From: a virus
Lineage: Duplodnaviria; Heunggongvirae; Uroviricota; Caudoviricetes
Strand: one strand, 5' to 3'
Virus record (IMG/VR): IMGVR_UViG_2639762960_000007
DNA: 38,405 nt
Shown piece after piece: positions 1 through 37,493 of this stretch; the stretch's first letter is position 1; each line of letters begins with the position of its first letter. The notes under the pieces were generated by a model. It saw only the letters and a list, made by a program, of their open reading frames with translations. It was not told the origin of the DNA and ran no database searches. The position numbers and the translations under genes were made by a program.

Positions 1-642
1 TTATTTATTGGCTACTGCATCAATACTTAAACTTTCAACGGAGACACCTTTGGTTTCAATTCCAATGGTGGCGATAGCAATTGCGACAATAATTGAAACA
101 GCCCCCAGAAGAATAAAGACTCCCGTTACGCCATAACTACTGAGCAGCACTGCAACGGCATAAGGCGCGGCAATACCACTGATTCGCCCTACCGCATTCG
201 CCAGACCGGAGCCACGGAGTTTGGCCTCTGTTGGCCAGATCTCAGGGACATACACTGCCGAGGCATAGCAAACGTACATATAGACGAAAGTAATCAGGAA
301 GAAACCAATCAGCGTTATGAGCAACATACTGGTTTGCAGTGAATAGATATATCCGAGCACCGCAATCAGGATTAATAGCCCCATCCCCATTGTTTTACGC
401 GGAATTTTATCCATCACCAGCATGGCAATAAAAATACCAAATGGCGCGCCAAACATACTCATGGTATTTAAAACAATCGAGTCTTTTAAATTAATTCCCT
501 GGGTCATGAATATCGTTGGCAACCAGTTAATTAGTGTGTACTGCACAACGTTCATGGCAATCAGCACACAAGAGCCTAATATCACGCGTTTCAGTGATGC
601 GCCGCGCGATAAATGCACTCTATCTTGTGCGATAAATGGCAT
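1..642 (-). CDS. MFS-family transporter, C-terminal half only (5'-truncated; probably a host gene interrupted by the prophage)
   Basis: Stop TAA at 1..3 (tta on plus strand). The 213-aa translation is about six hydrophobic helices, typical of the second half of a 12-TM MFS permease. An in-frame stop lies a few codons upstream of the first Met, so the N-terminal half is absent here. Confidence 0.6.
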   Translation of the reverse strand: MPFIAQDRVHLSRGASLKRVILGSCVLIAMNVVQYTLINWLPTIFMTQGINLKDSIVLNTMSMFGAPFGIFIAMLVMDKIPRKTMGMGLLILIAVLGYIYSLQTSMLLITLIGFFLITFVYMYVCYASAVYVPEIWPTEAKLRGSGLANAVGRISGIAAPYAVAVLLSSYGVTGVFILLGAVSIIVAIAIATIGIETKGVSVESLSIDAVANK

Positions 643-2449: not shown

Positions 2450-4042
2450 TCACGCCGCCCTCACGATATAGTTAAACGCGATATTGCGGGGGCGGGTTAT
2501 GTTAAAGAATGCTCCGTTTAATTCGGCTTTTGCGCGACTGTTTGTTCCACCCAGAATTGCGTACCACAAATAATCGCTACGGTAATTCCCCGCAAACACC
2601 TTATCGCCGCCATAGTCAATATTATTTCCGTTACTCATGTACGAGATATCCAGCGAAGAATCGTTATCGTCATGACCGCCGACCAGTGTACCTTTCTGCC
2701 ATGAAAGCAACTTACGCCCCTCGTCAATCTTGCGCCCGTCGTCCCATCCACGGATAAACTCACCGCGTAAATCAGGAAGACGGAGGGTCGGGTAGACTCT
2801 GGCCAGAACAGGATATTGTTCTTTTGTAAAGGCGCGCCCGTCGCACTTTAACCAGCCTGCTGGCGGTGTGGCGGTGGGCCATGGAACCGGTACACCAACA
2901 GGCAATGCAGAGCCTTCCCCCAAACCAAGGTAATTGAGGACATCTTTTATACTGCCCTTAGCGATAATCGCGCGACCAATAGCTGTAAGGGTTGCCAGCG
3001 CTGCGCGGTCTGCTCCGGTAAAATAAGGCAACCGATCTGCTGCAGTGGCAAGTCCTGCGAGAGCAGTGAGCGTGGCATCTGCCGGTTGTTTTCCGTTTGC
3101 CAGATCGTATGCAGCCTTGACCGCTTTCGGTGTGGCGGCCAGTATTTCAGACGTGCTGTTGATGGCACTGCTCAGTTGTACGGTGCCTTTTGCCGTCAGC
3201 GAGGCAGCAGGCACTCCCGTTATCTGACTCCACGGGTGAGTGTGGCTGACGGGCGCCTTGCCGGCTGCAAGGTCGTATGCAGCCTTGACCGCCTTCGGCG
3301 TGGCAGCCTCAGTTTCTGATTGACTGTCCGTGGCGCTGCTCAGTTGTACGGTGCCTTTTGCCGTCAGTGAAGCCGCAGGCACTCCCGTTATCTGACTCCA
3401 CGGGTGAGTGTGGCTGGCAGGCGCCTTGCCGGCTGCCAGGTCGTATGCAGCCTTGACCGCTTTCGGTGTGGCGGCCAGCGTTTCAGACGTGCTGTTGATG
3501 GCACTGCTCAGTTGTACGATCCCTTTACGGGTCGTTGTTGCATCCTGGGCTGTGTATTTTCCCCGGGCCAGATCATACGCGATTTTCACAGCCTTCGGCG
3601 TGGCAGCCTCAGTTTCTGATTGACTGTCCGTGGCGCTGCTCAGTTGTACGGTGCCTTTTGCCGTCAGTGAAGCCGCAGGCACTCCCGTTATCTGACTCCA
3701 CGGGTGAGTGTGGCTGGCAGGCGCCTTGCCGGCTGCCAGGTCGTATGCAGCCTTGACCGCTTTTGGTGTGGCGGCCAGCGTTTCAGAGGTGCTGTTGGTG
3801 GCACTGCTCAGTTGGGTGAACCCCTTAGCTGTCAGTGTCGCGTCCGGGTGGTTACGGGAACGTACGTGTTCAGCCAGTGACTGTGCGGCTTCCTCCGTTT
3901 TCTTCTTCAGCCATTTCGTCCTGTTTGCCAGTTGCCGGGGGGCTCGATTTGATATCCCGTCTGCACCACCCAGAACCGGATCTGATGTCTCCAGTTGATA
4001 GATATTTTCTTCCCACTTTTCTGTTTCATTCAGGTTTCCCAT
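2450..4042 (-). CDS. Tail fibre protein with tandem phage-fibre repeats; C-terminal ~93 aa lie inside the invertible segment
   Basis: ATG at 4040..4042 (the track start at 4048 is TTG); the upstream gene's TGA sits at 4045..4047. Repeated SHTHPWSQITGVPAASLTAKGTVQLSSAT..ATPKAVKAAYDLA units are fibre-repeat-like. Lies directly downstream of the baseplate J/I genes. Confidence 0.85.
   Translation of the reverse strand: MGNLNETEKWEENIYQLETSDPVLGGADGISNRAPRQLANRTKWLKKKTEEAAQSLAEHVRSRNHPDATLTAKGFTQLSSATNSTSETLAATPKAVKAAYDLAAGKAPASHTHPWSQITGVPAASLTAKGTVQLSSATDSQSETEAATPKAVKIAYDLARGKYTAQDATTTRKGIVQLSSAINSTSETLAATPKAVKAAYDLAAGKAPASHTHPWSQITGVPAASLTAKGTVQLSSATDSQSETEAATPKAVKAAYDLAAGKAPVSHTHPWSQITGVPAASLTAKGTVQLSSAINSTSEILAATPKAVKAAYDLANGKQPADATLTALAGLATAADRLPYFTGADRAALATLTAIGRAIIAKGSIKDVLNYLGLGEGSALPVGVPVPWPTATPPAGWLKCDGRAFTKEQYPVLARVYPTLRLPDLRGEFIRGWDDGRKIDEGRKLLSWQKGTLVGGHDDNDSSLDISYMSNGNNIDYGGDKVFAGNYRSDYLWYAILGGTNSRAKAELNGAFFNITRPRNIAFNYIVRAA
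2730..2928 (-). repeat. Right arm of the ~199-bp inverted repeat (inside the tail-fibre coding sequence)
   Basis: Reverse complement matches 1312..1510. Confidence 0.85.
3050..3870 (-). repeat. Tandem near-identical coding repeats inside the tail-fibre gene
   Basis: Blocks such as ccgtcagtgaagccgcaggcactcccgttatctgactccacgggtgagtgtggctggcag recur at about 3361 and 3661 (300 bp apart), with a related copy near 3210. Confidence 0.8.
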
Positions 4043-4044
4043 AA

Positions 4045-4623
4045 TCAACTGCTCCCGTGGTTATAACTGCCATCATGGATGGCGGTATTGTTATAGCGAA
4101 TGGCCACAGACTGATACTCCAGGCTGGCCAGATGGCAGCGGGCCGGTGCAAATGCAGCCAGCGTCTGACGCAGCATCGCGGCCTGATCGTTAGTAATGGG
4201 CTGTTTCAGAATAACGCGATAAACTGCCCAGGCGGCTGCATCTCCATGAACAAACAGTCCGTTATAGCTGCGATTGCCGTCGTAACTGAGACGACCTGTG
4301 CCTTCAATCAGATCCACTTCACCAAAGCCAAAACGGCGGATAACTTCCCGGATTGACCACGGCGTCCCTTTATACCGGTGCAGTTCGATGGCTGCTTTTA
4401 TAAGCATGCGGCGAACATCGTCCGATTCCGCCAGCTCCCAGCCATCGCCAGACAGTGAGAACTGCTCGCCCAGCCATGGCAGCGCGGAACTGTCGACGAT
4501 ATCGACGAGAAAGACCATCAGTACGCTCAGGTCGATGTTATCCAGCCGTCCTGCCAGTCTTCCCAGCGTCCTGAGACTGATATCACCCTCAAGCGGTGGC
4601 GGGAGTTGTAATGGCTCAGTCAT
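4045..4623 (-). CDS. Baseplate protein, P2 gpI-like
   Basis: ATG at 4621..4623 (track start at 4635 is GTG). Placed between the J-like gene and the fibre gene; translationally coupled to both neighbours. Confidence 0.65.
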   Translation of the reverse strand: MTEPLQLPPPLEGDISLRTLGRLAGRLDNIDLSVLMVFLVDIVDSSALPWLGEQFSLSGDGWELAESDDVRRMLIKAAIELHRYKGTPWSIREVIRRFGFGEVDLIEGTGRLSYDGNRSYNGLFVHGDAAAWAVYRVILKQPITNDQAAMLRQTLAAFAPARCHLASLEYQSVAIRYNNTAIHDGSYNHGSS

Positions 4624-5719
4624 CAGACACTCCACTCATGTTAAGTGTGATCGCCGTACAGTTTGCCCATTCGTTTTCTGCCACCACCCTCAGTGCCGGT
4701 GTCACCAGTTCAACCTGGTACACCCCGGAAACGGACAATGCACTGATAATCTGGCTGGGGACAATATCACGCCCCAGCGTGGCGGCACGTGATGCCACCC
4801 AGTTCTGTATGGCGCTGTTAGCGGCATCTTTTACAGACCTGGCATCCTGATCACGATAGATCGTAATCCTGGCTTCAATGGTGTAATCCACCTTCACTGG
4901 TGTTTTAGCCCGCACTGTATCAGTGAGTGGCCTGACTTTCTCATCAGAGCAGAAACTCTCTACCAGCGTGAGAACACCGCCGTCCGGCAGACCGGTACTG
5001 AGCAGCGGATACAGATCTACGGTCCCGGGAACCGGGGAAAGCACAGCAACATCGACAATGTTGGGATGGGCCTGCATGGCATGAAAGCGGTATGCGCCAC
5101 GGCTTCCGGCATTGGTGAATGACTCCGGGGCCAGCCTGATACGCTCCCGGAGCCTGTCATCGTCTTCCTGTTCTGAACCGCCGGAACTGGCCGTCAGATT
5201 GCTCACCAGCAGGTCGACGTTATCAATCTCATCGAGTAACTGACTGACCTGCGCAGGTTGCCAGCCGTTACCAGCGGTACCGGGTTCGGTACAGGTGGAC
5301 GTGACATTGACCAGCAGCAATCCGGCCTTCAGTACCACATCTGTATCGGTGGCAAAAATAACGCTGTCGGAAGCGCTGACGCGGGTGCCTGCCGGGATCA
5401 GCACATCAATGGCCAGTGCCTCATCTACGGAGAACTGGAGCGTGGTAGTGGCAGGCTGCGCGGCAAGACGGTATACACCGACCAGTTCACCGAGGTAATC
5501 AATCATCGGCTCACGGGCAAAGGCGACCAGATTCTGCTTTGCTGCCTCCTGTACCGCAACCCTGACCAGCATTTCGCGATAGGCCCACAGATCAATCAGC
5601 AGACGCTCTGCCTGTGCCGGGTACAGCGTTTTGCCGGTATCCGCTTCATACTTCGCAATCATTTCTGCCGTGATTTTGTCGGCATCGCGTTCAATAAAAT
5701 CGGGTTCTGTCAGCGCCAT
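4616..5719 (-). CDS. Baseplate wedge protein, P2 gpJ-like
   Basis: 367 aa; ATG at 5717..5719; order W-J-I-fibre as in P2-type baseplates. Confidence 0.8.
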   Translation of the reverse strand: MALTEPDFIERDADKITAEMIAKYEADTGKTLYPAQAERLLIDLWAYREMLVRVAVQEAAKQNLVAFAREPMIDYLGELVGVYRLAAQPATTTLQFSVDEALAIDVLIPAGTRVSASDSVIFATDTDVVLKAGLLLVNVTSTCTEPGTAGNGWQPAQVSQLLDEIDNVDLLVSNLTASSGGSEQEDDDRLRERIRLAPESFTNAGSRGAYRFHAMQAHPNIVDVAVLSPVPGTVDLYPLLSTGLPDGGVLTLVESFCSDEKVRPLTDTVRAKTPVKVDYTIEARITIYRDQDARSVKDAANSAIQNWVASRAATLGRDIVPSQIISALSVSGVYQVELVTPALRVVAENEWANCTAITLNMSGVSDD

Positions 5720-17136: not shown

Positions 17137-18252
17137 TTACAGGCAGCGTGCGACAGCAGCCTCATAGCTGATGCCTTCTTTTTTGGACAGGGCCACTGCT
17201 TTCTGATGCAGGGCCAGACGCTCAGGATCGGCTTCCGCAAACTCCGCCACATCCACCTTCACCGTGTCGCCGACACGCTCCTTTGTGGCCTGTTCGGCGA
17301 AATTCATCACCGGCTCCCCGTCGGAGAGCAATGAACGGAAGGCGGTGGCCAGCGGCGTGCGGCTTTCCCCCTCAGCAAACTCCACCGGCTTGTCGCCACC
17401 GGCGACGGCATCCAGCAGGGCAACCACCACGGAGGAGGCGCGGGGAGCCAGACGCCCCTCTGCGACCAGTTTTTCTGCAAAGGCCACATTGTCCTTATGC
17501 AGTTGCTCCTGTCTGGCCTGTGCATCACGCGCATCGCGATCAGCAGCCTGCTGCTTCAGGCGGCGGTTCTCCTCCTGAAGGGCTTCAATCTCTTCTTTTG
17601 TCATCGATGATTCCTCGTTACTTGCGGAAGACGGCACCTGGCCTGTCTCACTGAATTGTGCACCTGCTGCATCCTGCGACGGTGCGTCGCGGTACGCCTC
17701 TTCGCGCAGATTGTTGAGCTGCCATTCCGGCAGGACTTTTTCTGCTTCGTCCAGACTGAAGCGGGCGATCAGAAAATCGCGCAGCTTTCCCCACAGGGAG
17801 GCATTCGTGATGGCCTGCCAGTCGGCGAACTCCACCACACCTTCTTCCTGCTCACTGAAGGACACCTGTTTCAGCCCCTTGACGGAAGGTGGCTGTGCCC
17901 CGAGAAAGCCCACATGGCGCAGGTAGAGCACGCCGGGCTTCGGATTGGACGGTGAATCCGGGAGGTAGAAAGAGGCGGACACTTTTTTGAATCGTCCGTT
18001 GGTGACCATCTCAGCAAACTGCGGGTCCAGCTGGGCAGGCTCTGCCATCAGATCGACGCCGCTGAGCGACAGGGCTTTCACCCAGCCCCACGCCGGGTCT
18101 TCCGTTCTGGGATGACCAATCACGAGTGGTGCTTCATGGACGGACGGGTCATAGGCTTTCACGCAGGCGGCAAGATCGTCTGGCGTGAACGGCAGTTTTT
18201 TGCCGTGCATATCGGTATGAGTACCGGCTTTAAAAATGTGAATGGCTGACAT
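17137..18252 (-). CDS. Head protease/scaffold protein, Mu I-like
   Basis: 371 aa; ATG at 18250..18252; charged coiled-coil C-terminal half (scaffold-like) after a globular N-terminal domain. Confidence 0.75.
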   Translation of the reverse strand: MSAIHIFKAGTHTDMHGKKLPFTPDDLAACVKAYDPSVHEAPLVIGHPRTEDPAWGWVKALSLSGVDLMAEPAQLDPQFAEMVTNGRFKKVSASFYLPDSPSNPKPGVLYLRHVGFLGAQPPSVKGLKQVSFSEQEEGVVEFADWQAITNASLWGKLRDFLIARFSLDEAEKVLPEWQLNNLREEAYRDAPSQDAAGAQFSETGQVPSSASNEESSMTKEEIEALQEENRRLKQQAADRDARDAQARQEQLHKDNVAFAEKLVAEGRLAPRASSVVVALLDAVAGGDKPVEFAEGESRTPLATAFRSLLSDGEPVMNFAEQATKERVGDTVKVDVAEFAEADPERLALHQKAVALSKKEGISYEAAVARCL

Positions 18253-18388
18253 TTTGCTGTCCCGCGTTATGTTGTCGGAGACAGTTTGTGAGAAATGCAG
18301 GCCCGGCGATTTTAATCTGCTTTAGAAAACATCAGGGGAGAAGGACAGGGAAAGCAATGCGGTGAACCGGAAGCGGTTATAAAACAGA

Positions 18389-23401: not shown

Positions 23402-23727
23402 TATTGACCTCCGGTATTGCGGTACTGCTGTACCACTTCCAGTTTGTTATAAAGCGCGTCCAGTTTGGCCTCAATGACTGTCTGGCCACGGATATAATCC
23501 TCTCGACGGACATAATTCAGCGGTAAATCCGCTTTAAATCGCATAAATTCTTTTTCCAGCTCGCCCCAGTTGGAGGCGGATTGTTGCAGGGCCTGTTCAA
23601 GGGAGGCGAATCGTGCCGCCTGGCGTTCTTCTGTTTTACTGAACAACCATTTGGCGAGCCCTCCCACAAACCCCATGAAGGTGAGCAGAAAACTCACCAC
23701 CGTCCAGAATTCAACCTGCAGTGTCAT
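23401..23727 (-). CDS. Small membrane protein (one N-terminal TM), possibly lysis-associated
   Basis: 108 aa; ATG at 23725..23727; hydrophobic stretch WTVVSFLLTFMGFVGGLAKWLF followed by a coiled-coil-like region. Confidence 0.5.
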   Translation of the reverse strand: MTLQVEFWTVVSFLLTFMGFVGGLAKWLFSKTEERQAARFASLEQALQQSASNWGELEKEFMRFKADLPLNYVRREDYIRGQTVIEAKLDALYNKLEVVQQYRNTGGQ

Positions 23728-24374
23728 TTCTGTAATCCTTCCCGTTCATCCAGTAACGCGTTTATCTGGTTCCGCCAGCGACGACATTGTCCTGCGTTGT
23801 CGATGATGTTGGCGAGAACGTCACGCTGGGAGACACCCGAATCGCGTAACCGGGTGTCAGTGGTTTCAGGTTGCCCGGTCGCTGTGCCAGAGCGGGTGCC
23901 AGCGGCGGCAACTGAGTCTGAATGACCGGTGTCGACGGATGCGTTGTCATATCCGAGTGCGGCGTTGTACTGGCGCACGAAACCGCGAGTAAACACGCAC
24001 TCAATGGGATGGCTCTTACCTTTTTCATCAATCCAGCGCTGTGTGACATCGTTAATTTGCCCCTGTAGTTGTTTATTCCGGCTCTCCAGTTGAGCAATCT
24101 GCTCAAGATAACCGGCTTCAGCCCGCTGCCCGGCGGCCACCTGCTCCTGATACCGTCTGGCCCAGGCCCGCAGCGCAGCATTCTCAAGCGTTGCCTGCTC
24201 CGTTTTGTACGTGTCGAACGCTGACTGCAACTGACTGAGCGCGGTATCACCGTCACGCTTTGCAGAGTCATGACCACTTCTGTATCCCATGGCATACAGG
24301 CCGACCAGAAAGGCATTGATAAGAATGGCCAGCAGAATGCCGCGCCACGGCAGCTTTTTAACCAGATGCCACAC
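23724..24374 (-). CDS. Rz-like inner-membrane spanin (i-spanin)
   Basis: GTG at 24372..24374 preceded by GGAGG gives about 216 aa: N-terminal TM (GILLAILINAFLVGLYAMG), then a long helical periplasmic domain. Starts at the upstream M codons of the track ORF cannot be excluded. Confidence 0.55.
   Translation of the reverse strand: MWHLVKKLPWRGILLAILINAFLVGLYAMGYRSGHDSAKRDGDTALSQLQSAFDTYKTEQATLENAALRAWARRYQEQVAAGQRAEAGYLEQIAQLESRNKQLQGQINDVTQRWIDEKGKSHPIECVFTRGFVRQYNAALGYDNASVDTGHSDSVAAAGTRSGTATGQPETTDTRLRDSGVSQRDVLANIIDNAGQCRRWRNQINALLDEREGLQK
23762..24028 (-). CDS. Rz1-like outer-membrane lipoprotein spanin (o-spanin), fully embedded in the +1 frame of the Rz-like gene
   Basis: ATG at 24026..24028 gives 88 aa starting MKKVRAIPLSAC (lipobox LSAC), then a proline-rich mature region (TPHSDMTTHPSTPVIQTQLPPLAPALAQRPGNLKPLTPG). 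Confidence 0.55.
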   Translation of the reverse strand: MKKVRAIPLSACLLAVSCASTTPHSDMTTHPSTPVIQTQLPPLAPALAQRPGNLKPLTPGYAIRVSPSVTFSPTSSTTQDNVVAGGTR

Positions 24375-25098
24375 AACTGCTGCCTCCCCATGTGAGATAT
24401 CGCGGTGCCAGTTCGCGCAGGATGCGCTGCGGATAATGGCGGTTCTCCCGCCAGCTGGCCGCATTGCGTCCGGCATTCACCGTGGCGACATGTCCGAACC
24501 AGCGGGTGCTGTCCAGCCCCTGCTGCGAGGCCAGCCGTTTGTCCCGCTGTACCCAGCCCAGACCACCGTTATAGCCTGACAGCGTCATGGCCATACGCTC
24601 GCAGTCACTGGCGGCGCTGACGCGTTGCCACAGCCAGCGGTCATAGCTGACCAGCGCCCGGATGGCCCACGCCGGATTAAACGGTTCACGGCTGTTAAGC
24701 CCCGGCATCAGCTGACTTATCCAGTCAGCGGTGGTGGGCATAAACTGCGCCAGTCCCTGAGCGCCAGCCGGCGAGACCGCATCAGGTCGCCAGCCGCTTT
24801 CCTGATGCAGCTGCGCGGCGAAGTCGGCCACCGGCGCAGACAGTCCCCATTCAAGCCGGGCATTACGGATCACATCATCGCGATACTGCAGCGCAACCTG
24901 CGGAGGCTGCGCTGCGCATGCCTGGCTGAAAAAGCCGCCACACCAGAGCAACATTGCGACAAAGAATACCCATGCCATATGAACCAGAAAGGTCCCGGCG
25001 CGGACTGACAGGCGTTCGGTTCTGATGAAGACCCGAAAGGCTTCGAAAGCCAGTTTCAGGGACATGCATACAATCCAGGTGATCTGCGGCCAGTTCAT
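24358..25098 (-). CDS. Endolysin, soluble lytic transglycosylase (SLT) type, with N-terminal hydrophobic segment (possible signal-anchor-release domain)
   Basis: 246 aa; ATG at 25096..25098; SLT motif region LHQESGWRPDAVSPAGAQGLAQFMP; N-terminal hydrophobic stretch MAWVFFVAMLLWCGGFF. Confidence 0.75.
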   Translation of the reverse strand: MNWPQITWIVCMSLKLAFEAFRVFIRTERLSVRAGTFLVHMAWVFFVAMLLWCGGFFSQACAAQPPQVALQYRDDVIRNARLEWGLSAPVADFAAQLHQESGWRPDAVSPAGAQGLAQFMPTTADWISQLMPGLNSREPFNPAWAIRALVSYDRWLWQRVSAASDCERMAMTLSGYNGGLGWVQRDKRLASQQGLDSTRWFGHVATVNAGRNAASWRENRHYPQRILRELAPRYLTWGGSSCVASG

Positions 25099-25100
25099 GA

Positions 25101-25451
25101 TTAAAGCCCCATCGCAACAGCCAGACAGACAGCTGCAACAATCAGTGCACGGCGGATTAACGCAGCAGAAAATACAAGGTGAAGGCCGGTCTGCACAGGG
25201 AAACGCCCTTCAGCCATCAGCCTGTCTTCATGTTTCAGGTACTGACCGGGACGGGCTTTGGGGAAGAGCGAACGGTCAAGCCAGTACCCCAGCACTGCTG
25301 CCAGCGTGATGAGTGCCAGCTTGTAGATCACAACAGGCAACTGCTGTGGCGAGACCAGAGCGATGATGCCCAGCAACAGCACTGAGGTCAGCAGCCAGCC
25401 GCTGAGGCGAGGTTTTTTAACAGGGGGAATGAATTTTTTCAGGTTTTTCAT
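25101..25451 (-). CDS. Holin (three predicted TM segments)
   Basis: ATG at 25449..25451 preceded by GAGGAG gives 116 aa. The track ORF opens 11 codons upstream (GTG at 25482..25484, then ATG at 25479..25481). First gene of the lysis cassette. Confidence 0.6.
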   Translation of the reverse strand: MKNLKKFIPPVKKPRLSGWLLTSVLLLGIIALVSPQQLPVVIYKLALITLAAVLGYWLDRSLFPKARPGQYLKHEDRLMAEGRFPVQTGLHLVFSAALIRRALIVAAVCLAVAMGL

Positions 25452-25565
25452 GTGTGTCTCCTCGTTTGGTGGAGACAGCATCACAAATGTGGCGGGATAC
25501 GGATTTTAAACAGCGTTAATAGTGAAGATGTAAACGTGCACTGCATGATGGCTTTGAAAGAACGA

Positions 25566-25698: not shown

Positions 25699-26469
25699 AT
25701 GAAAATGCAGACATTACCCATCGTTCCATGGATTGGTGGCAAACGCCGCCTTGCAAAACACATCCTGCCGCTGTTTCCGGCGCATGAATGTTATGTGGAG
25801 CCGTTTTGTGGGGCAGCAGCGCTCTATTTTCTTAAGGTACCCGGCAAGATCGAAGTCATTAATGATATCAACGGTGAGCTGGTGAACCTGTATCGGGTGG
25901 TAAAACATCATCTGGAAGAATTTGTACGCCAGTTCAAATGGGCGCTGGTCAGCCGGCAGATCTACAAATGGCTGCAGATCACCCCGGAAGAAACACTGAC
26001 GGATATCCAGCGTGCAGCACGGTTCTACTACCTTCAGAAGCAGGCGTTTGGGGGCAAGGTGGCGGAGCACAGCTTTGGTACCTCCACCATATCCCCGCCA
26101 CGCTTCAACCTGCTGCGTATTGAAGAAGAACTGTCAGCGGCACACCTGCGGCTTTCCAGAACGGTCATAGAACACATGGACTGGCAACAGTGCATAGAAC
26201 GATATGATCGCCCGCATACGTTGTTCTACTGTGACCCTCCATACTGGGGAACGGAAGGTTATGGTGTGGAGTTCGGACTAGAAAATTATGATCATATGGC
26301 AGATTTAGCACGCAGGATCAAAGGGAAGATGATTATATCGGTGAACGATATCCCGGAAATGCGGCAGGCATTCAACGGTCTAAATATTCAGTCGGTTGAT
26401 ATCAGCTACAACCTCAAGATCACTGGCAAATCCAGTCGCAAGAAGGAACTCATTATCCTCAACTTTTGA
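25699..26469 (+). CDS. N6-adenine DNA methyltransferase, Dam (D12 class)-like, orphan
   Basis: 256 aa; ATG at 25699; motif I-like EPFCGAAAL and catalytic DPPY (FYCDPPYW); no adjacent restriction endonuclease candidate. Confidence 0.85.
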   Translation: MKMQTLPIVPWIGGKRRLAKHILPLFPAHECYVEPFCGAAALYFLKVPGKIEVINDINGELVNLYRVVKHHLEEFVRQFKWALVSRQIYKWLQITPEETLTDIQRAARFYYLQKQAFGGKVAEHSFGTSTISPPRFNLLRIEEELSAAHLRLSRTVIEHMDWQQCIERYDRPHTLFYCDPPYWGTEGYGVEFGLENYDHMADLARRIKGKMIISVNDIPEMRQAFNGLNIQSVDISYNLKITGKSSRKKELIILNF

Positions 26470-27664
26470 CCGAATAGTAAGACTTCATGCAGTGAATCAA
26501 GTACTGCATGAAGTCAAGGGCTGGTTTTGTGTACCAAAAATAAACAGTGATAGCGGTAATAATTCCCATAACTAGAACACCACGTATAATCCAGAACGTA
26601 CGTTTCTGCGTGTCTAGTCGCGCAGAAATACTGCTAAATACACCAGCCACGTCATCTTTAATGAAGGAATATTCCTTATTAATCTGTTTTTCTTTGTATT
26701 CAATTTCTTCGCCTAAGGCCTTTATAGATTGCATCTGGTTCGAAAGTGCCAGCCAGATTAACGTTGCAGCAAAAATGCATCCCAGAAGAATTATTGTGTT
26801 TGTTATCCCTTGGCCTGACCATTTCGTAGCCACTTTGAATTGGGTAGCTACGATAACAGAGGCAACAGGAATGCCAAGTATATGGTTCTGGATATCTGAA
26901 AACGCTTTGTGGATTTTACCCATTTCTTCGACTTTTGCAGCACGCAGTTGATCCATTACTTTGTCATAAGAGAATCCAGAAGAGTAGATACGATACCCTT
27001 TCAGAAACTTTTCATGCAGACGCTGAATATTGTCCAGTAAATAAGCGAATACTAGAGGTGAATCAATTCCATCACTAACTGCTTGAATACTTTCAATCAG
27101 AATATCTAGCTTCTGATCCTTATGGGTATCATCATTGAAACAAGCTATAAGGTTATCAAGATACTCCCTTTGCAAATTTTGTACATTTTCTGCAGCGAAG
27201 TGCGGTAATAGCTTGATAACTTCTTTTTTCAGAAAAACTAACTGACAAGTTGAGTTATCAAAGTAGGCCGCGGCCTCTTTTAGCAGGTTAACGAACTCGA
27301 GAATCTTCCGGTAGTTGCTGATGAAAACGGGGATATCTTCATCATCATTACGAAATTTTGTTTCTAGGATGAAGTAATTAGCTGGCTCAAGGCACTGATG
27401 CTTTGGAGCATTTAGCAATTTTTCATGGGTGGAAAACACAAGTCCCAGTCCACTCCGTGGTGACGTCACACGTAGGATGATCGTGTTACCTGGAGCGATA
27501 GTGCCTGTATCAATAGAAAGACCATATTCACGAGGATCATCAAGCAAAGTATCAACCAGATCACAATCGGACTGATCTAAGAGCAACAGCGAACCGACAC
27601 GAAACCCCTCTTGGAATTCCATACGACGATACAGAGCTGTCAGCATCTCAAATGAAATCGCCAC
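26459..27664 (-). CDS. Protein with ~270-aa soluble N-terminal domain and three C-terminal TM helices; second gene of the repressor-linked cassette (candidate effector)
   Basis: 401-aa ORF starting at GTG 27662..27664, two nt after the upstream gene's TAA, with GAGG upstream; alternative ATG at 27646. Hydrophobic segments IPVASVIVATQF, ITNTIILLGCIFAATLIWLALS and TFWIIRGVLVMGIITAITVYFWY. AT-rich codon usage. Confidence 0.65.
   Translation of the reverse strand: MAISFEMLTALYRRMEFQEGFRVGSLLLLDQSDCDLVDTLLDDPREYGLSIDTGTIAPGNTIILRVTSPRSGLGLVFSTHEKLLNAPKHQCLEPANYFILETKFRNDDEDIPVFISNYRKILEFVNLLKEAAAYFDNSTCQLVFLKKEVIKLLPHFAAENVQNLQREYLDNLIACFNDDTHKDQKLDILIESIQAVSDGIDSPLVFAYLLDNIQRLHEKFLKGYRIYSSGFSYDKVMDQLRAAKVEEMGKIHKAFSDIQNHILGIPVASVIVATQFKVATKWSGQGITNTIILLGCIFAATLIWLALSNQMQSIKALGEEIEYKEKQINKEYSFIKDDVAGVFSSISARLDTQKRTFWIIRGVLVMGIITAITVYFWYTKPALDFMQYLIHCMKSYYSVKS
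26481..26515. other. Perfect 13-bp-stem inverted repeat at the convergent junction of the methyltransferase and cassette genes
   Basis: gacttcatgcagt-gaatcaagt-actgcatgaagtc, 12 nt after the methyltransferase stop and inside the last ~20 codons of the minus-strand membrane-protein ORF. Confidence 0.4.
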
Positions 27665-27666
27665 GA

Positions 27667-28674
27667 TTAAACCTCAGTCATCCACATTTCCCTAAATTCT
27701 TCAGGTACATTACGTAGGGTGATAATATTTGTTTCCGGATCATAATCAATATAGCCTTCAGTTTTCCCTTCCCGGTCAAACTTAAGTTCCCAATATTTAG
27801 ACTTGCCTTTAAAAGATACCAGAGCCCGAATGACTCGACCATCAGGAACGAAGCCATCCGATAACTCCAACTCTTCAGCAGCAAGTTTACCAGATAACTC
27901 CTCGGGAGCCTGGGGCCAAATGGCATTAACAAGGGTTTCAAGACTAAGTGGTTCACCAGCCTTACTTAGTGCATGTAAGTGTTCAAACGCACTCTTAAGA
28001 AATGCATCTTTTTCAGCGCCGTCAAGTCCTTTCTCTGCCGCAAATGCTTTTAAAACGTCACGTAACTTTTCAGACTCTCGTTTGGCGATTAAGACATCAT
28101 TACAGCCTAGGAACTGTTTAAAATAGTTTGAAACATTACCTTGCCCCTTAAGAAAACTGATATAGCGCTCTGCGCCACTTTCCCACGCGGTTAAGTCAAT
28201 GCGCCCAGCCATACGCAGCTTAGCAATATCAAGATAGGTACTATCTTGGATGTTAAAATCATCTGTGACAGTGGACCCAATGGTAGCGCTTACAATAGCT
28301 ATCAACAGGTGTTCATTGTGTCCTATCACGATATTTGCAAAAAGAACATAACCACCAGTAGCCATGTTTTCTCGCTGAGAACGTTCCGTCAGGTGATGCA
28401 TCATTCGGCAGGAACTTTGGTAGAAATCATCAACACCTTCGAGAAAGTCCCCAGCCATTCGTTCCATAGGATAGTTATCCGTATCGCCTTCAAAATAGCC
28501 ATAACCTTTACCTGTGCGTCCTGCATATTTTGCACAAATATCGTTTATAAGGCGCTGAGAGGCTTCAGTAACTAGACCTTCTTCAGGACTCAATCTCTCA
28601 GAAGCGTCTCCATTTTGTTGTTTGTCTAAAATGTGAACTACAACGTGTTTAACTTCAATGGTCTGCTCAGACAT
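27667..28674 (-). CDS. NdpA/YejK (NA37)-like nucleoid-associated-protein homologue; first gene of the repressor-linked cassette (candidate sensor)
   Basis: 335 aa; ATG at 28672..28674 preceded by GGTGGA. It matches the length and several blocks of E. coli YejK as I recall it (GGYVLF, LLIAIVS, YLDIAKLRMAGRIDLTAWESG, RYISFLKGQG, IITLRNVPEEFRE). The family call is from memory, not a search. Confidence 0.55.
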   Translation of the reverse strand: MSEQTIEVKHVVVHILDKQQNGDASERLSPEEGLVTEASQRLINDICAKYAGRTGKGYGYFEGDTDNYPMERMAGDFLEGVDDFYQSSCRMMHHLTERSQRENMATGGYVLFANIVIGHNEHLLIAIVSATIGSTVTDDFNIQDSTYLDIAKLRMAGRIDLTAWESGAERYISFLKGQGNVSNYFKQFLGCNDVLIAKRESEKLRDVLKAFAAEKGLDGAEKDAFLKSAFEHLHALSKAGEPLSLETLVNAIWPQAPEELSGKLAAEELELSDGFVPDGRVIRALVSFKGKSKYWELKFDREGKTEGYIDYDPETNIITLRNVPEEFREMWMTEV

Positions 28675-28744
28675 TGGCTATCCACCTTATTTTTTATTGC
28701 TTAATGGCAAATAATTTCTGCTATATGTTCTCGTTAGGAACACA

Positions 28745-29152
28745 TTAACCCACATTTTTTAACCGCTCAATCGTTGCGGATAATTCCTTCAGTTGTTTTT
28801 CCATCTCAATCACACGCTGTTTTTCTTCAGCGCCTCGCATGAGATCTCGCCGAACCTCAGGATCTAACTGGTTTAGAAGTTCAAGCATTTTAAGGTCTGA
28901 CGGGCTGAATTGATGTTGTGTTGGTACAGCAACAATTTCTTTAGATGGAATATGTTCTTTACCGGTAAGTAGCCAATCGATTGATACACCCAAATGGGTA
29001 CTTAGCGCAACAAGAGCCTCTGCGTTTGGTTCTCTCTCTCCACGCAAATAGTTTTGAAGTGAGCGATATGGAATTTTTGATAAGTCAGATAATGCCTTTA
29101 TTGTCATGCCATTAGCATCCATCACTTCACGCAATCTCTCTTTTGTACTCAT
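28745..29152 (-). CDS. Phage repressor, HTH (XRE/Cro-C1 type) with C-terminal coiled coil
   Basis: ATG at 29150..29152 gives 135 aa starting MSTKERLREVMDANGMTIKALSDLSKIPYRSLQNYLRG; divergent from the early operon across an operator-like region. Confidence 0.7.
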   Translation of the reverse strand: MSTKERLREVMDANGMTIKALSDLSKIPYRSLQNYLRGEREPNAEALVALSTHLGVSIDWLLTGKEHIPSKEIVAVPTQHQFSPSDLKMLELLNQLDPEVRRDLMRGAEEKQRVIEMEKQLKELSATIERLKNVG

Positions 29153-29168
29153 TTGAACATATCTCAAT

Positions 29169-29196
29169 TTGACACACTCATTTGGGTGTGTACAAT
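29169..29196 (+). promoter_or_regulatory. Candidate early promoter (-35 TTGACA, 16-bp spacer, -10 TACAAT) overlapped by an operator-like dyad
   Basis: TTGACA at 29169..29174 and TACAAT at 29191..29196, 45 bp upstream of the Ner-like ATG; dyad ACACAC-N8-GTGTGT (29172..29191) spans the spacer. Confidence 0.5.
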
Positions 29197-29240
29197 AGAC
29201 CCAATAGAGTACATCATAACCTAACAGGAACACGGTGCAT

Positions 29241-29465
29241 ATGAACAAACAACAAGTTCGGGCACGGCTGGTTGAACGAGGCAGTAGCTTGCGCCAGTTC
29301 GCGCTTAACGCGGGCTATGAACCACGAACAGTCACCCAGGCAGTCAGTCGCTGGGCTGGTAAAAGTGAACTACCTCGCGGTCGTTTGACTTATCGGATTT
29401 TGCGAGATCTATCGGTTGCAATAGGTAAAGAAGTTACCCCCGGTATCCTTAAGGAGGCGTCATGA
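29241..29465 (+). CDS. ner: Ner-like DNA-binding protein
   Basis: ATG at 29241 (track start is GTG two codons upstream); 74 aa with LRQFALNAGYEPRTVTQAVSRW resembling the Mu Ner HTH region; first gene of the early operon. Confidence 0.65.
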   Translation: MNKQQVRARLVERGSSLRQFALNAGYEPRTVTQAVSRWAGKSELPRGRLTYRILRDLSVAIGKEVTPGILKEAS

Positions 29466-36673: not shown

Positions 36674-37123
36674 ATGCAGAAAAAACGCCTGATACAGCTT
36701 ATCCATATTGCCCGTAATGAACTGGGTATGGATGAAGACACCTACCGCCAGATGTTACAGGGGCTGACCGGTAAAGCCTCAACCAAAGGAATGGATACCA
36801 CACAACTAAACTGCGTGCTGGAATCCATGAAAAAGAAAGGCTTTCGCGTTAAACCAGCCAGAAAAGCCAGCTCCGGTTTACCGCTGGATAACCATCCGCA
36901 GTCCAGGAAAATTCGTGCGCTATGGCTTGAAATGGCTGCTGCCGGCATTGTTCGTGACCGTTCAGAAAATGCATTAGCGCGGTGGATCAAGCGGGAAACG
37001 GGCATCAGCGCCCTGCGCTGGCTCAATACTGAACAGGCAAGCAGTGTTATTGAGAAACTGAAGAAGTGGCAGCACAGAGCTGCGGGAGTAAAACATGAGC
37101 GACCTGAATCAGTTTCGAAGTAA
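36674..37123 (+). CDS. gemA: GemA-like protein (Mu gp16 family)
   Basis: 149 aa; ATG at 36674 preceded by AAGGAGA; N-terminal LIQLIHIARNELGMDEDTYRQMLQGLTGKAS matches the GemA signature; sits immediately upstream of mor. Confidence 0.75.
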   Translation: MQKKRLIQLIHIARNELGMDEDTYRQMLQGLTGKASTKGMDTTQLNCVLESMKKKGFRVKPARKASSGLPLDNHPQSRKIRALWLEMAAAGIVRDRSENALARWIKRETGISALRWLNTEQASSVIEKLKKWQHRAAGVKHERPESVSK

Positions 37124-37493
37124 AGGGCCGGAACTCCTGGTGGAGCTGGCACAGCATACCTCTGAGACCGTTCGCGAGATTATTGATATTGAGCCCGCAA
37201 TTGCCGACCAGATTGGTCAGGCCGTCGCGAACCGAATGATGCAGGTCTGGGGCGGGCAAAACGTTTATTTCCCGATGGGCATGGTATGGAAGGTCAGTCA
37301 GCGCGACCGGGAAATCTTCAGGGAGTTTAACGGACGCAACCACCACGAACTGGCCCGCAAGTTTGGTGTTTCGCTTCAGTGGGTCTACAGCGTGGTTAAG
37401 CGGGTCAGAAAAGAAGAACTGGATCGGATGCAGGGCAGGTTGTTTGATGAAGATCTGCCAGAGGAGACGAAAGACGTTAACAAATCCAGATAA
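37095..37493 (+). CDS. mor: Mor-family transcription activator (middle operon regulator)
   Basis: 132 aa; ATG at 37095 preceded by GGGAG; C-terminal HTH ELARKFGVSLQWVYSVVKR resembles Mor/C family; overlaps the gemA 3' end. Confidence 0.8.
   Translation: MSDLNQFRSKGPELLVELAQHTSETVREIIDIEPAIADQIGQAVANRMMQVWGGQNVYFPMGMVWKVSQRDREIFREFNGRNHHELARKFGVSLQWVYSVVKRVRKEELDRMQGRLFDEDLPEETKDVNKSR

Follow-up and report, generated by a model that had tools for sequence, protein, structure and literature searches.

The transposable phages BcepMu and B3 both reportedly had their lysis cassettes described in 2004; for BcepMu, Summer et al. are said to have named in that year gp21 as the holin, gp22 as an SLT endolysin, gp23 as Rz and gp24 as Rz1. 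The BcepMu record (NC_005882) annotates gp24 as "Rz1, out of frame, embedded proline-rich protein". Kongari et al. (2018; PMC6139136) place BcepMu and phiE255 in a group with embedded two-component spanins. Here we examine the corresponding genes of the viral record IMGVR_UViG_2639762960_000007 from IMG/VR, a stretch of 38,405 nucleotides referred to below as the window. Judged from its sequence, the region very probably belongs to a BcepMu-like (Bcepmuvirus) transposable prophage of Escherichia coli and forms the lysis module at the head of its late operon. The cassette is of an ordinary, already described type; its unusual detail is a two-helix membrane module, rather than a plain export signal, fused to the endolysin.

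The cassette lies on the minus strand in the order holin, SLT endolysin, inner-membrane spanin (i-spanin) Rz and embedded outer-membrane spanin (o-spanin) Rz1, and is followed by genes for a 108-aa membrane protein, a gp26-like protein, a Mu-gp27-type TerS and TerL. BcepMu has the same gene order, overlaps and families, the same embedded proline-rich Rz1 and the same succession of gp25, gp26, TerS and TerL, the two being collinear from gp21 to gp28. Identity to the BcepMu proteins is 51% for the holin, 61% for the endolysin core, 27% for Rz, 35% for Rz1, 50% for gp25 and 57% for gp26. The hosts differ, Burkholderia for BcepMu and E. coli for the window prophage, and so do the endolysin N-termini: BcepMu gp22 has one short signal (MRVLIAFVVALLGAAAPVAA before Q), whereas the window enzyme has some 43 extra residues, which make up the two-helix module.

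An earlier note on this DNA had proposed a lysis cassette with a holin, an endolysin of the SLT rather than the Mu lysozyme type, and an embedded Rz/Rz1-like spanin pair. Pfam, PHROG and the synteny with BcepMu agree with that assignment, and the open reading frames (ORFs) concerned exist on the minus strand (25101-25484 or 25101-25451, 24358-25098, 23724-24374 and 23762-24028). The features discussed below are collected in Table 1.

Prophage context

The 2.4 kb around the lysis genes show 100% identity with the chromosome of E. coli M-17, and of 5,426 complete E. coli genomes 638 carry the cassette, with identities of 80-100%. Among phage records the closest are Escherichia phage PhiKM, a Bcepmuvirus by classification (96.5%), Phi06_2974 B and Klebsiella phage KP12. 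RefSeq annotation of the window describes a complete transposable prophage, whose minus strand carries the genes for tail, head and terminase; also encoded are a repressor, a DDE transposase, a MuB-like ATPase, Gam and a Mor-family activator, the last encoded at 37095-37493. For comparison we used 69 related loci from IMG/VR with Rz identities of 71-100%.

Table 1. Coordinates of the lysis genes, their parts and adjoining elements in the window
Feature	Coordinates	Strand	Evidence
Candidate Mor-family activator binding motif of a late promoter, TAACGCTGTTTAAAATCC	25501..25518	-	Conserved in 42 distinct upstream contexts; function proposed
Conserved block ATTTGTGATGCTGTCTCC with putative extended -10 and alternative GTG/ATG	25471..25488	-	Near-invariant DNA in all relatives
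Putative extended -10, TGTGATGCT	25485-25477	-	TGn plus nAnnnT, without a -35
Holin, 116 aa, Holin_2-3 family	25101..25451	-	Pfam PF13272, phrog_1528, BcepMu gp21 identity
Two-helix membrane module, endolysin residues 1-57	24928..25098	-	AlphaFold2 model, homology to phrog_5479 mini-proteins
Linker S58-Q59-A60-C61-A62, predicted signal peptidase I site (A62 then A63)	24913..24927	-	A-x-A pattern
Endolysin catalytic domain, family 1 lytic transglycosylase (SLT)	24358..24912	-	PF01464, BcepMu gp22 identity
i-spanin (Rz-like), 216 aa, GTG start	23724..24374	-	phrog_1403, BcepMu gp23 similarity, conserved start
o-spanin (Rz1-like), 88 aa, +1 frame inside Rz, core LPPLAPALAQRPGNLKPLTPGYA	23762..24028	-	Conservation, diversity, BcepMu gp24 alignment
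gp25-like membrane protein, 108 aa	23401..23727	-	50% identity to BcepMu gp25, phrog_462

Endolysin

The endolysin gene (25098-24358, minus strand) encodes 246 residues and matches the SLT profile PF01464 with 54.2 bits (cutoff 21.3; E 1.3e-14); its PHROG match is likewise an endolysin. The motif HQESGW contains the catalytic pair E100-S101, in which E100 is invariant and S101 is kept in at least 90% of 40 homologues; C166 and C242 are invariant across the same set. An AlphaFold2 (AF2) model is all-helical, and its top Foldseek matches in the PDB are MltF, MltC, MltE and MltD, with probabilities of about 1.0. The profile score above threshold, the E-S catalytic glutamate and the all-helical fold place the enzyme among the family 1 lytic transglycosylases. 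The model is of only moderate quality (mean pLDDT, the per-residue confidence score, 67.7), and the Foldseek E-value of 3e-3 is weak.

In front of this domain lies a module composed of a first helix H1 (residues 3-25), a basic turn (26-29, RTER), a second helix H2 (30-53) and the sequence GGFF (54-57). AF2 models the two N-terminal helices at pLDDT 71-82. H1 is preceded by an uncharged N-terminal tail, the basic turn lying between the helices, and the relatives keep this one plan although H1 and the loop fall into three sequence types. Immediately after GGFF, 91 distinct N-termini follow the pattern S-Q-A-x-A-A-(Q/E)-P-P, the first alanine of A-x-A being present in 85 of them and the second in 89, with nine different residues in the middle; in the window the linker reads SQACAA and is modelled at low confidence, residues 61-63 falling below 50. 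Such a hypervariable -2 position in A-x-A is the (-3,-1) signature of signal peptidase I. Other Enterobacterales members of the family carry a plain signal peptide or a lipobox at this end, and the KS10 paper notes that lysin N-termini differ and that a signal peptide is predicted. We consider it highly likely that the endolysin is exported by its own N-terminus; the chances that it is then cleaved at the predicted A-x-A site we put at about even, going by the residue pattern.

The earlier note had suggested that the hydrophobic N-terminus acts as a signal-anchor-release (SAR) domain. This holds in part. A SAR domain is a single, weakly hydrophobic, uncleaved transmembrane domain (TMD) rich in Gly, Ala, Ser and Thr, whereas the window enzyme has two helices and the conserved A-x-A, and its H2 contains 23% G/A/S/T and 68% L/I/V/F/M/W, against 56% and 33% in the SAR domain of Mu gp22; the hydrophobicity of H2 matches that of the stable holin and Rz TMDs. 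Behaviour resembling that of SAR proteins is still compatible with these features. We regard as improbable a reading in which the endolysin is a classical uncleaved SAR enzyme, its single weakly hydrophobic domain released on depolarisation, and the holin gene has two products, the 116-aa holin (ATG 25451) and, started at GTG 25484, an antiholin of 127 aa. In favour of its endolysin half, the H2 helices of the sequence types B and C have a mean hydropathy of 1.1-1.3, close to the 1.31 of the Mu gp22 SAR domain, and end in a conserved GG. Chamblee et al. (2022; PMC9239132) moreover class the SLT endolysins of Pseudomonas Mu-like siphophages as SAR type, and Mu gp25 as a releasin.

The hairpin belongs to a family of mini membrane proteins, phrog_5479, which has no assigned function in PHROG and no Pfam model. 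Residues 1-58 of the window enzyme match positions 1-53 of the phrog_5479 profile (E 3.9e-4), and a profile of 23 enterobacterial endolysin N-termini aligns over its full length with gp24 of Ps60 (hhalign Prob 97.3%, E 2.6e-11). Searching with the hairpin profile returned at least 1,694 representative clusters, mostly proteins of 52-65 aa, of which 143 had E <= 1e-10. Among the best 150 clusters 100 are free-standing proteins of at most 70 aa, 38 are tandem doublets and only two carry the SLT motif. The tandem duplications (P0267, P0268, P0272, P0274 and others) are generally of about 105-121 aa with four TMDs and make up about a quarter of the best matches; P0272, of 277 aa, joins the duplication to a long coiled-coil tail.

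Among the Pseudomonas phages of the genus Beetrevirus the hairpin occurs in both states. Phage B3 has the fused hairpin-endolysin form (Prob 87%), whereas Ps60 and Fc02 have a separate 52-aa gene with two TMDs between holin and endolysin. Residues 57-243 of the B3 enzyme are 97% identical to residues 23-209 of the Ps60 endolysin, yet just upstream of this shared domain B3 has the hairpin ending in GGFFSSAKA and Ps60 a classical signal, MKRLLTLGLLGLLTACQPAFAT, the two diverging within 1-2 residues of the A-x-A. Hairpin and signal peptide are therefore interchangeable at the predicted cleavage point, and the exchange amounts to a natural experiment on the targeting and restraint of exported endolysins.

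Lipobox-like sequences also occur at the N-termini of SLT endolysins, LLTAC in Ps60 (L079:3865-4494) and Fc02 and LLSGC in P0081; such enzymes are possibly lipoproteins, neither soluble nor of the SAR type.

Spanins

Rz matches phrog_1403, "Rz-like spanin", with an E-value of 7.6e-92. A basic tail (MWHLVKKLPWR) leads into an N-terminal TMD at residues 12-30 (mean Kyte-Doolittle hydropathy 2.15), which is followed by a periplasmic helical domain containing Cys126 and Cys197; OmpH-like matches over residues 47-135 hint at a coiled coil, weakly. The gene comes immediately after that of the endolysin, whose stop it overlaps by 17 nt, and the product has the single N-terminal TMD and the predicted N-in/C-out topology of an i-spanin. 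BcepMu gp23 and the window Rz have the motif CVFT(R/A)GFVR in common. GTG 24374 lies behind GGGGAGG, and both start and Shine-Dalgarno sequence are kept in the relatives; a longer, 250-aa product from ATG 24476 was discarded, the upstream ATG being cut off by stops in 15 relatives. RefSeq labels for this protein are inconsistent ("hypothetical", "lipoprotein" and "lysis system spanin subunit").

The o-spanin gene lies wholly within Rz in the +1 frame, at an offset of 346 nt, and spans 0.53-0.94 of its length; both limits agree with the range seen in about 70% of embedded spanins (PMC6139136). It encodes a protein with 13.6% Pro and is conserved among relatives: all 67 complete loci have the ATG start, exactly 88 codons and both cysteines. 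The exceptions among the 69 loci are L076, on a contig that is cut at its end, and L073, with an insertion of about 2 kb and the change C18Y. The core LPPLAPALAQRPGNLKPLTPGYA aligns with BcepMu gp24, with an embedded ORF of a Ralstonia phage and with an ORF of Ps60 that lies in the same +1 frame and runs 7 nt past the Rz stop. The 88-aa proline-rich ORF that the earlier note had placed in this frame is thus found in the same frame in the relatives examined, BcepMu and the Ralstonia phage included, with the Ps60 overrun as the one departure from full embedding.

In L073 (IMGVR_UViG_2910425090_000009, ~3570-5615) the insertion splits the 3′ end of Rz/Rz1 from the gp25-like gene, and Rz1 has a read-through tail besides C18Y. 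It is a decaying prophage copy, and the substitution, the only cysteine change, falls at the predicted lipidation site.

Nucleotide diversity at the three Rz codon positions was computed over 48 distinct ungapped Rz sequences; these are phylogenetically related and the figures are descriptive. Before the overlap the values are 0.180/0.121/0.306, dominated by the wobble position of Rz. Over Rz1 residues 19-64 they change to 0.181/0.049/0.068, with the peak at what is the wobble position of Rz1, and amino-acid diversity there is 0.103 for Rz1 against 0.203 for Rz. Along the Rz1 tail the pattern is 0.061/0.072/0.198, and the shared signal-peptide stretch is near frozen at 0.016. By chi-square on counts of variable sites, core and tail differ with p = 0.01, and the pre-overlap region and the core with only p = 0.10.

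We take the embedded o-spanin to be almost certainly real, on the strength of these sequence comparisons. It is very improbable that the 88-codon ORF is an unexpressed by-product of the codon composition of Rz and that the 216-aa protein, or another gene, deals with the outer membrane. An ATG-initiated ORF of at least 88 codons appears in the +1 frame in 24% of synonymous shuffles of Rz, so length alone says little; a Met-initiated ORF that also contains a lipobox appears in 0.4%. Several further observations speak for a by-product: the ribosome-binding site is weak (GGA with 3 nt spacing), Rz1 has no match in PHROG, Pfam or NCBIfam and RefSeq leaves it unannotated in the window prophage, and the +1 frame is open over 203 codons without conservation. 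Against it are the same length and start in 67 of 67 loci, the wobble signature in the Rz1 frame with a core more conserved in Rz1 than in Rz, the same-frame proline-rich lipoprotein ORFs of BcepMu (gp24), the Ralstonia phage and Ps60, and the fact that the sole decayed copy carries both the insertion and C18Y. RefSeq thus misses the o-spanin gene in a prophage that sits in the 638 E. coli genomes noted above.

The 203 open codons of the +1 frame in the window are longer than in 99.7% of the shuffles. The corresponding 209-aa ORF (23762-24391; p = 0.003 against synonymous shuffles) was rejected as a gene: its upstream part is open for only 8-115 codons in relatives, and the openness upstream of the Rz1 ATG is probably an effect of chance or composition.

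Rz1 begins with a predicted signal of residues 1-17, followed by the lipobox LAVS-C18 (Cys codon 23977-23975) and Ala at +2. Under a PROSITE PS51257-type rule (six uncharged residues, then [LIVMFWSTAG]2-[LIVMFYSTAGCQ]-[AGS]-C, with Cys at 15-35 and K or R in the first 7), Cys18 in PLSACLLAVSC is the only site of the protein that fits. By this pattern rule Rz1 has the properties of an o-spanin, namely a signal peptidase II signal, a lipobox cysteine and a +2 residue other than Asp. Each orthologue also has a single cysteine of the PS51257 type, which in Ps60 falls in the Cys18 column, in the Ralstonia phage one column later and in BcepMu two columns later. The lipoprotein signal in the earlier note is therefore present by pattern, but its choice of LSAC as the lipobox is not favoured: Cys12 fits a strict lipobox expression yet leaves a signal of only 11 residues, and both the rule and the orthologue columns make it the less likely site. 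On this sequence evidence C18 (LLAVSC) is more likely than C12 to be the lipidated residue. According to the "+2 rule" of the Lol system, Ala at +2 is consistent with sorting to the outer membrane.

Holin and its upstream DNA

The holin matches Pfam PF13272 (Holin_2-3) over positions 1-106 of the 106-position profile, with 142.4 bits (cutoff 27) and an E-value of 7e-42, and phrog_1528, "holin", with 8.6e-55. It has a basic N-terminal tail (+6), TMDs at residues 16-34 and 39-58 and a C-terminal hydrophobic segment at 92-116. With a score above the gathering threshold, three hydrophobic segments and the first place in the cassette, it is a member of this holin family. ATG 25451 is the start annotated by RefSeq; GAGGAG lies 6 nt 5′ of it, and the Shine-Dalgarno sequence (AAGGAGAC or GAGGAGAC) is kept among relatives. 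The endolysin ATG follows 2 nt beyond the holin stop, at the junction TAATCATG.

A start 11 codons upstream had led the earlier note to suggest a possible holin/antiholin pair; phage λ has a pair of this kind in S105 and S107. The suggestion is also the holin half of the reading with a SAR endolysin set out above. The codons are there: GTG 25484 and ATG 25481 stand in frame 11 and 10 codons 5′ of ATG 25451 in the window, and an upstream GTG/ATG is in the holin frame in 36 of 63 loci. In the other 27, however, the codons are out of frame or there is a TGA. GTGATG forms part of an 18-nt block that is conserved as DNA, and indels of 1-2 nt shift the register of this block relative to the holin ATG; because the reading frame varies while the block itself stays near-invariant, we reject the dual start. 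Nor do the codons have a Shine-Dalgarno sequence in front of them, and the 11-residue extension, MMLSPPNEETH, is acidic (E8 and E9) and lacks Lys and Arg. In λ S107, by contrast with the two Glu here, the extension brings in a basic residue, and this delays triggering. We therefore hold with good confidence to a single start, the 116-aa product from ATG 25451; annotating the upstream start would spread a wrong antiholin label.

What the block does instead may be read from its surroundings. The layout is TAACGCnnTTTAAAATCC, 11-12 variable nt, ATTTGTGATGCTGTCTCC, 8-10 nt, AAGGAGAC and the ATG, and the element containing the candidate activator motif is kept in 42 distinct contexts although the DNA further upstream is unrelated among the relatives. 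A similar box, TAAAGCCGATTAAAAGACC, stands upstream of BcepMu gp21. A second copy of the motif (15 of 18 positions) occurs at 18307-18324 on the minus strand, within a gap of 214 nt before the head genes, and the sequence ATTT...CTGTCTCC is repeated there at 18296-18277; no holin-like ORF with an alternative start accompanies this copy, and the repetition of the motif before head genes is a further point against the dual start. The extended -10 without a -35, together with the Mor-family gene in the window, points to an activator-dependent late promoter. In the B3-like phage Fc02, RNA-seq shows that a separate late gene cluster begins at the holin (PMC9936078). Against the promoter, a generic scan for sigma-70 promoters and terminators found nothing above shuffle expectation in the cassette and did not call the putative promoter, its sole promoter-like match lying upstream of the cassette at 25705-25678; the assignment is also one made at the level of a consensus. 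On balance we lean towards the view that the upstream holin codons form the -10 region of such a promoter, and probably they are not even transcribed.

The copy before the head genes thus repeats the layout of the putative late promoter, as TAAAGCAGATTAAAATCG ... ATTTCTCACAAACTGTCTCC at 18277-18324 on the minus strand; the head-gene block itself starts at 18252. The box has a third, weaker match at 1093-1110.

Proposed mechanism

The explanation as a whole, cassette identity together with the mechanism that follows, seems to us likely; topology, cleavage, promoter function, holin mode of action and the role of the gp25-like protein all enter it as inferences. A Mor-family activator would turn on the late promoter whose -10 overlaps the supposed upstream holin start, and only the 116-aa holin would be made. 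The endolysin hairpin would insert with its basic turn in the cytoplasm, H1 passing from out to in and H2 from in to out, which would deliver the catalytic domain to the periplasm. Signal peptidase I would then probably cut after A60-C61-A62, giving a membrane mini-protein of 62 residues and a soluble transglycosylase of 184 residues, a pair for which Ps60 and Fc02 have one gene each. If the endolysin exports itself, the holin would act as timer and trigger, by collapsing the membrane potential, and not as a conduit. Rz would be anchored in the inner membrane and Rz1, lipidated on Cys18, would be sorted to the outer membrane with the help of Ala at +2; once the wall meshwork is cut, the two would bridge the periplasm and disrupt the outer membrane.

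Several points weigh against parts of this scheme. Signals and topology were all called from hydropathy, pattern rules and the positive-inside rule. With 22 residues H2 is long for the h-region of a cleaved signal, and an uncleaved anchor is possible. In the window H1 carries K15, E19 and R22 on one face (hydrophobic moment 1.21) and may lie on the membrane instead of spanning it. Finally, a soluble periplasmic transglycosylase present before the holin triggers would need some restraint, and none is apparent.

The last point is the one that a permanent or regulated tether would account for. In that case the hairpin stays uncleaved and keeps the transglycosylase attached to the inner membrane, either inactive or unable to reach the wall, until at lysis it is freed or activated by the holin, by the gp25-like protein acting like a releasin, or by both; the strong hydrophobicity and length of H2 are typical of uncleaved signal anchors, and the gp25-like gene occupies the slot that a true DUF2730 protein has in Fc02. 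We nevertheless think a tether rather unlikely. The variable -2 residue between near-invariant alanines is hard to explain without signal peptidase, and some family members have plain signals that look cleavable, or a lipobox. BcepMu combines the gp25-like gene with a single short endolysin signal. Two further objections come from the gp25-like gene itself.

This gene, the second annotated one after the endolysin and the third if the embedded Rz1 is counted, encodes a protein predicted to have an N-out TMD at residues 7-25 and a helical domain in the cytoplasm. Its N-terminal tail has a charge of -1, and the TMD is followed by K26 and a basic stretch. Position and predicted topology are those of a releasin; the sequence is not. 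In the slot concerned Fc02 has a DUF2730 protein (PF10805, E 4.6e-9), and Ps60, B3, BcepMu and the window prophage have the gp25-like family. PF10805 was not found in the window protein or 23 homologues even at E <= 10, hhalign of the gp25-like family gave a Prob of 10% against the Mu gp25 family and 0.5% against the Fc02 DUF2730 protein, and the PHROG families differ (462 for the gp25-like family, against 736). UniRef labels two gp25-like homologues DUF2730, which is unverified. As neither Pfam (24 members scanned) nor hhalign (three runs) nor PHROG gave a link, we rejected the protein as a homologue of the DUF2730 releasin, and the homology on which a releasin-freed tether could draw is missing. 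By analogy of position with the Mu gp25 releasin, an accessory role in lysis is possible for it. The presence of DUF2730 and gp25-like proteins in one slot offers a test of whether more than one fold carries the releasin function.

The second objection is that the gp25-like and gp26-like genes are exchanged together, on that side of a mosaic boundary where the terminase genes lie, and may serve packaging. Fc02 (L088:2724-3343) and Ps60 (L079:5311-5998) have holins that are 100% and endolysins that are 99.5% identical, and a block is exchanged between them just after Rz. It holds a DUF2730 and a Mu-gp26-like gene in Fc02 and BcepMu-gp25-like and gp26-like genes in Ps60, and the TerS proteins are only 45% identical. 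The swap and the TerS divergence therefore mark a mosaic joint at the boundary of lysis and packaging genes.

Other features of the window

Between the dam methylase and the repressor lies a low-GC island (26100-29300) with a GC content of 0.39-0.44, against 0.55-0.60 in the phage late genes. Its ORF at 26459-27664 on the minus strand (401 aa) has no Pfam match and a weak PADLOC match to KwaA of the Kiwa system (E 8e-5), in the C-terminal transmembrane region; a 335-aa ORF is labelled "nucleoid-associated protein" by RefSeq. Relatives carry other cargo at this site, including an ABC ATPase, DUF2441 and hypothetical genes, which suggests a moron or defence hotspot adjoining the putative lysis promoter. 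At the left end of the window (1-403 and 475-2087) a recombinase-family gene is accompanied by a truncated tail-fibre gene and the corresponding assembly gene. This layout resembles, by analogy, the Gin/Min-type invertible tail-fibre segment found in Mu.

Comparison with known lysis systems

Apart from BcepMu, the cassette is closest to those of the Beetreviruses B3 (ORF24-ORF28), Ps60 and Fc02, which have the same holin family (44% identity), an SLT domain of about 60% identity and the o-spanin ORF in the same frame. B3 and Ps60 also share the gp25-like and gp26-like genes with the window, and ORF25 of B3 is the same fusion of hairpin, A-x-A and SLT domain. Ps60 and Fc02 differ from the window in the separate hairpin gene, in an endolysin with the classical lipobox-like LLTAC signal and in an extra 72-aa gene between endolysin and Rz; in addition, Fc02 has DUF2730 in place of the gp25-like protein, and the Ps60 o-spanin is overlapped rather than embedded.

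With Rz/Rz1 of λ the window spanins have no sequence similarity, and they are longer (216 and 88 aa). The λ pair likewise combines a constrained proline-rich region with a variable C-terminal tail. Unlike its λ counterpart, the mature window Rz1 would have no Cys beyond the lipidated one, and any intermolecular disulfides would therefore form only through Cys126 and Cys197 of Rz.

The SAR endolysins P1 Lyz, phage 21 R and Mu gp22 do not need the holin for their export, which depends on an N-terminal hydrophobic domain, as it would in the window enzyme. Mu, too, is a transposable phage with an N-out/C-in protein of one TMD encoded a few genes after the endolysin. The differences lie in one helix against two, in the non-SAR composition and the A-x-A of the window enzyme, in its being a transglycosylase and not a muramidase, and in the want of a detectable DUF2730 protein.

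With phrog_5479, endolysin residues 1-57 share the signature M-x-W-P-Q-I ... basic loop ... L-L-W-x-G-G-F-F. Members of that family normally stand free, as proteins of 52-65 aa or as tandem doublets of about 110 aa, whereas the window module is fused to an enzyme. None of the five contexts examined is a lysis cassette; the free-standing members there lie among small ORFs that have no annotation or in regions of early or replication genes, so that no function carries over from them, and we do not regard the hairpin as a dedicated lysis-cassette protein. A bolder proposal is that the endolysin is a natural fusion, possibly a processed two-in-one precursor, that the phrog_5479-type mini-protein is itself a lysis regulator (antiholin, holin partner or tether) and that the gp25-like protein replaces the Mu releasin; this is speculative and we think it doubtful as a whole, but if true it would give a holin / hairpin-endolysin / spanin / releasin-analogue scheme undescribed for transposable phages. 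Beside BcepMu and B3 the cassette itself adds little. The leads of wider interest are only the hairpin fusion and phrog_5479, a large orphan family of mini membrane proteins on which the fusion provides a first functional handle.

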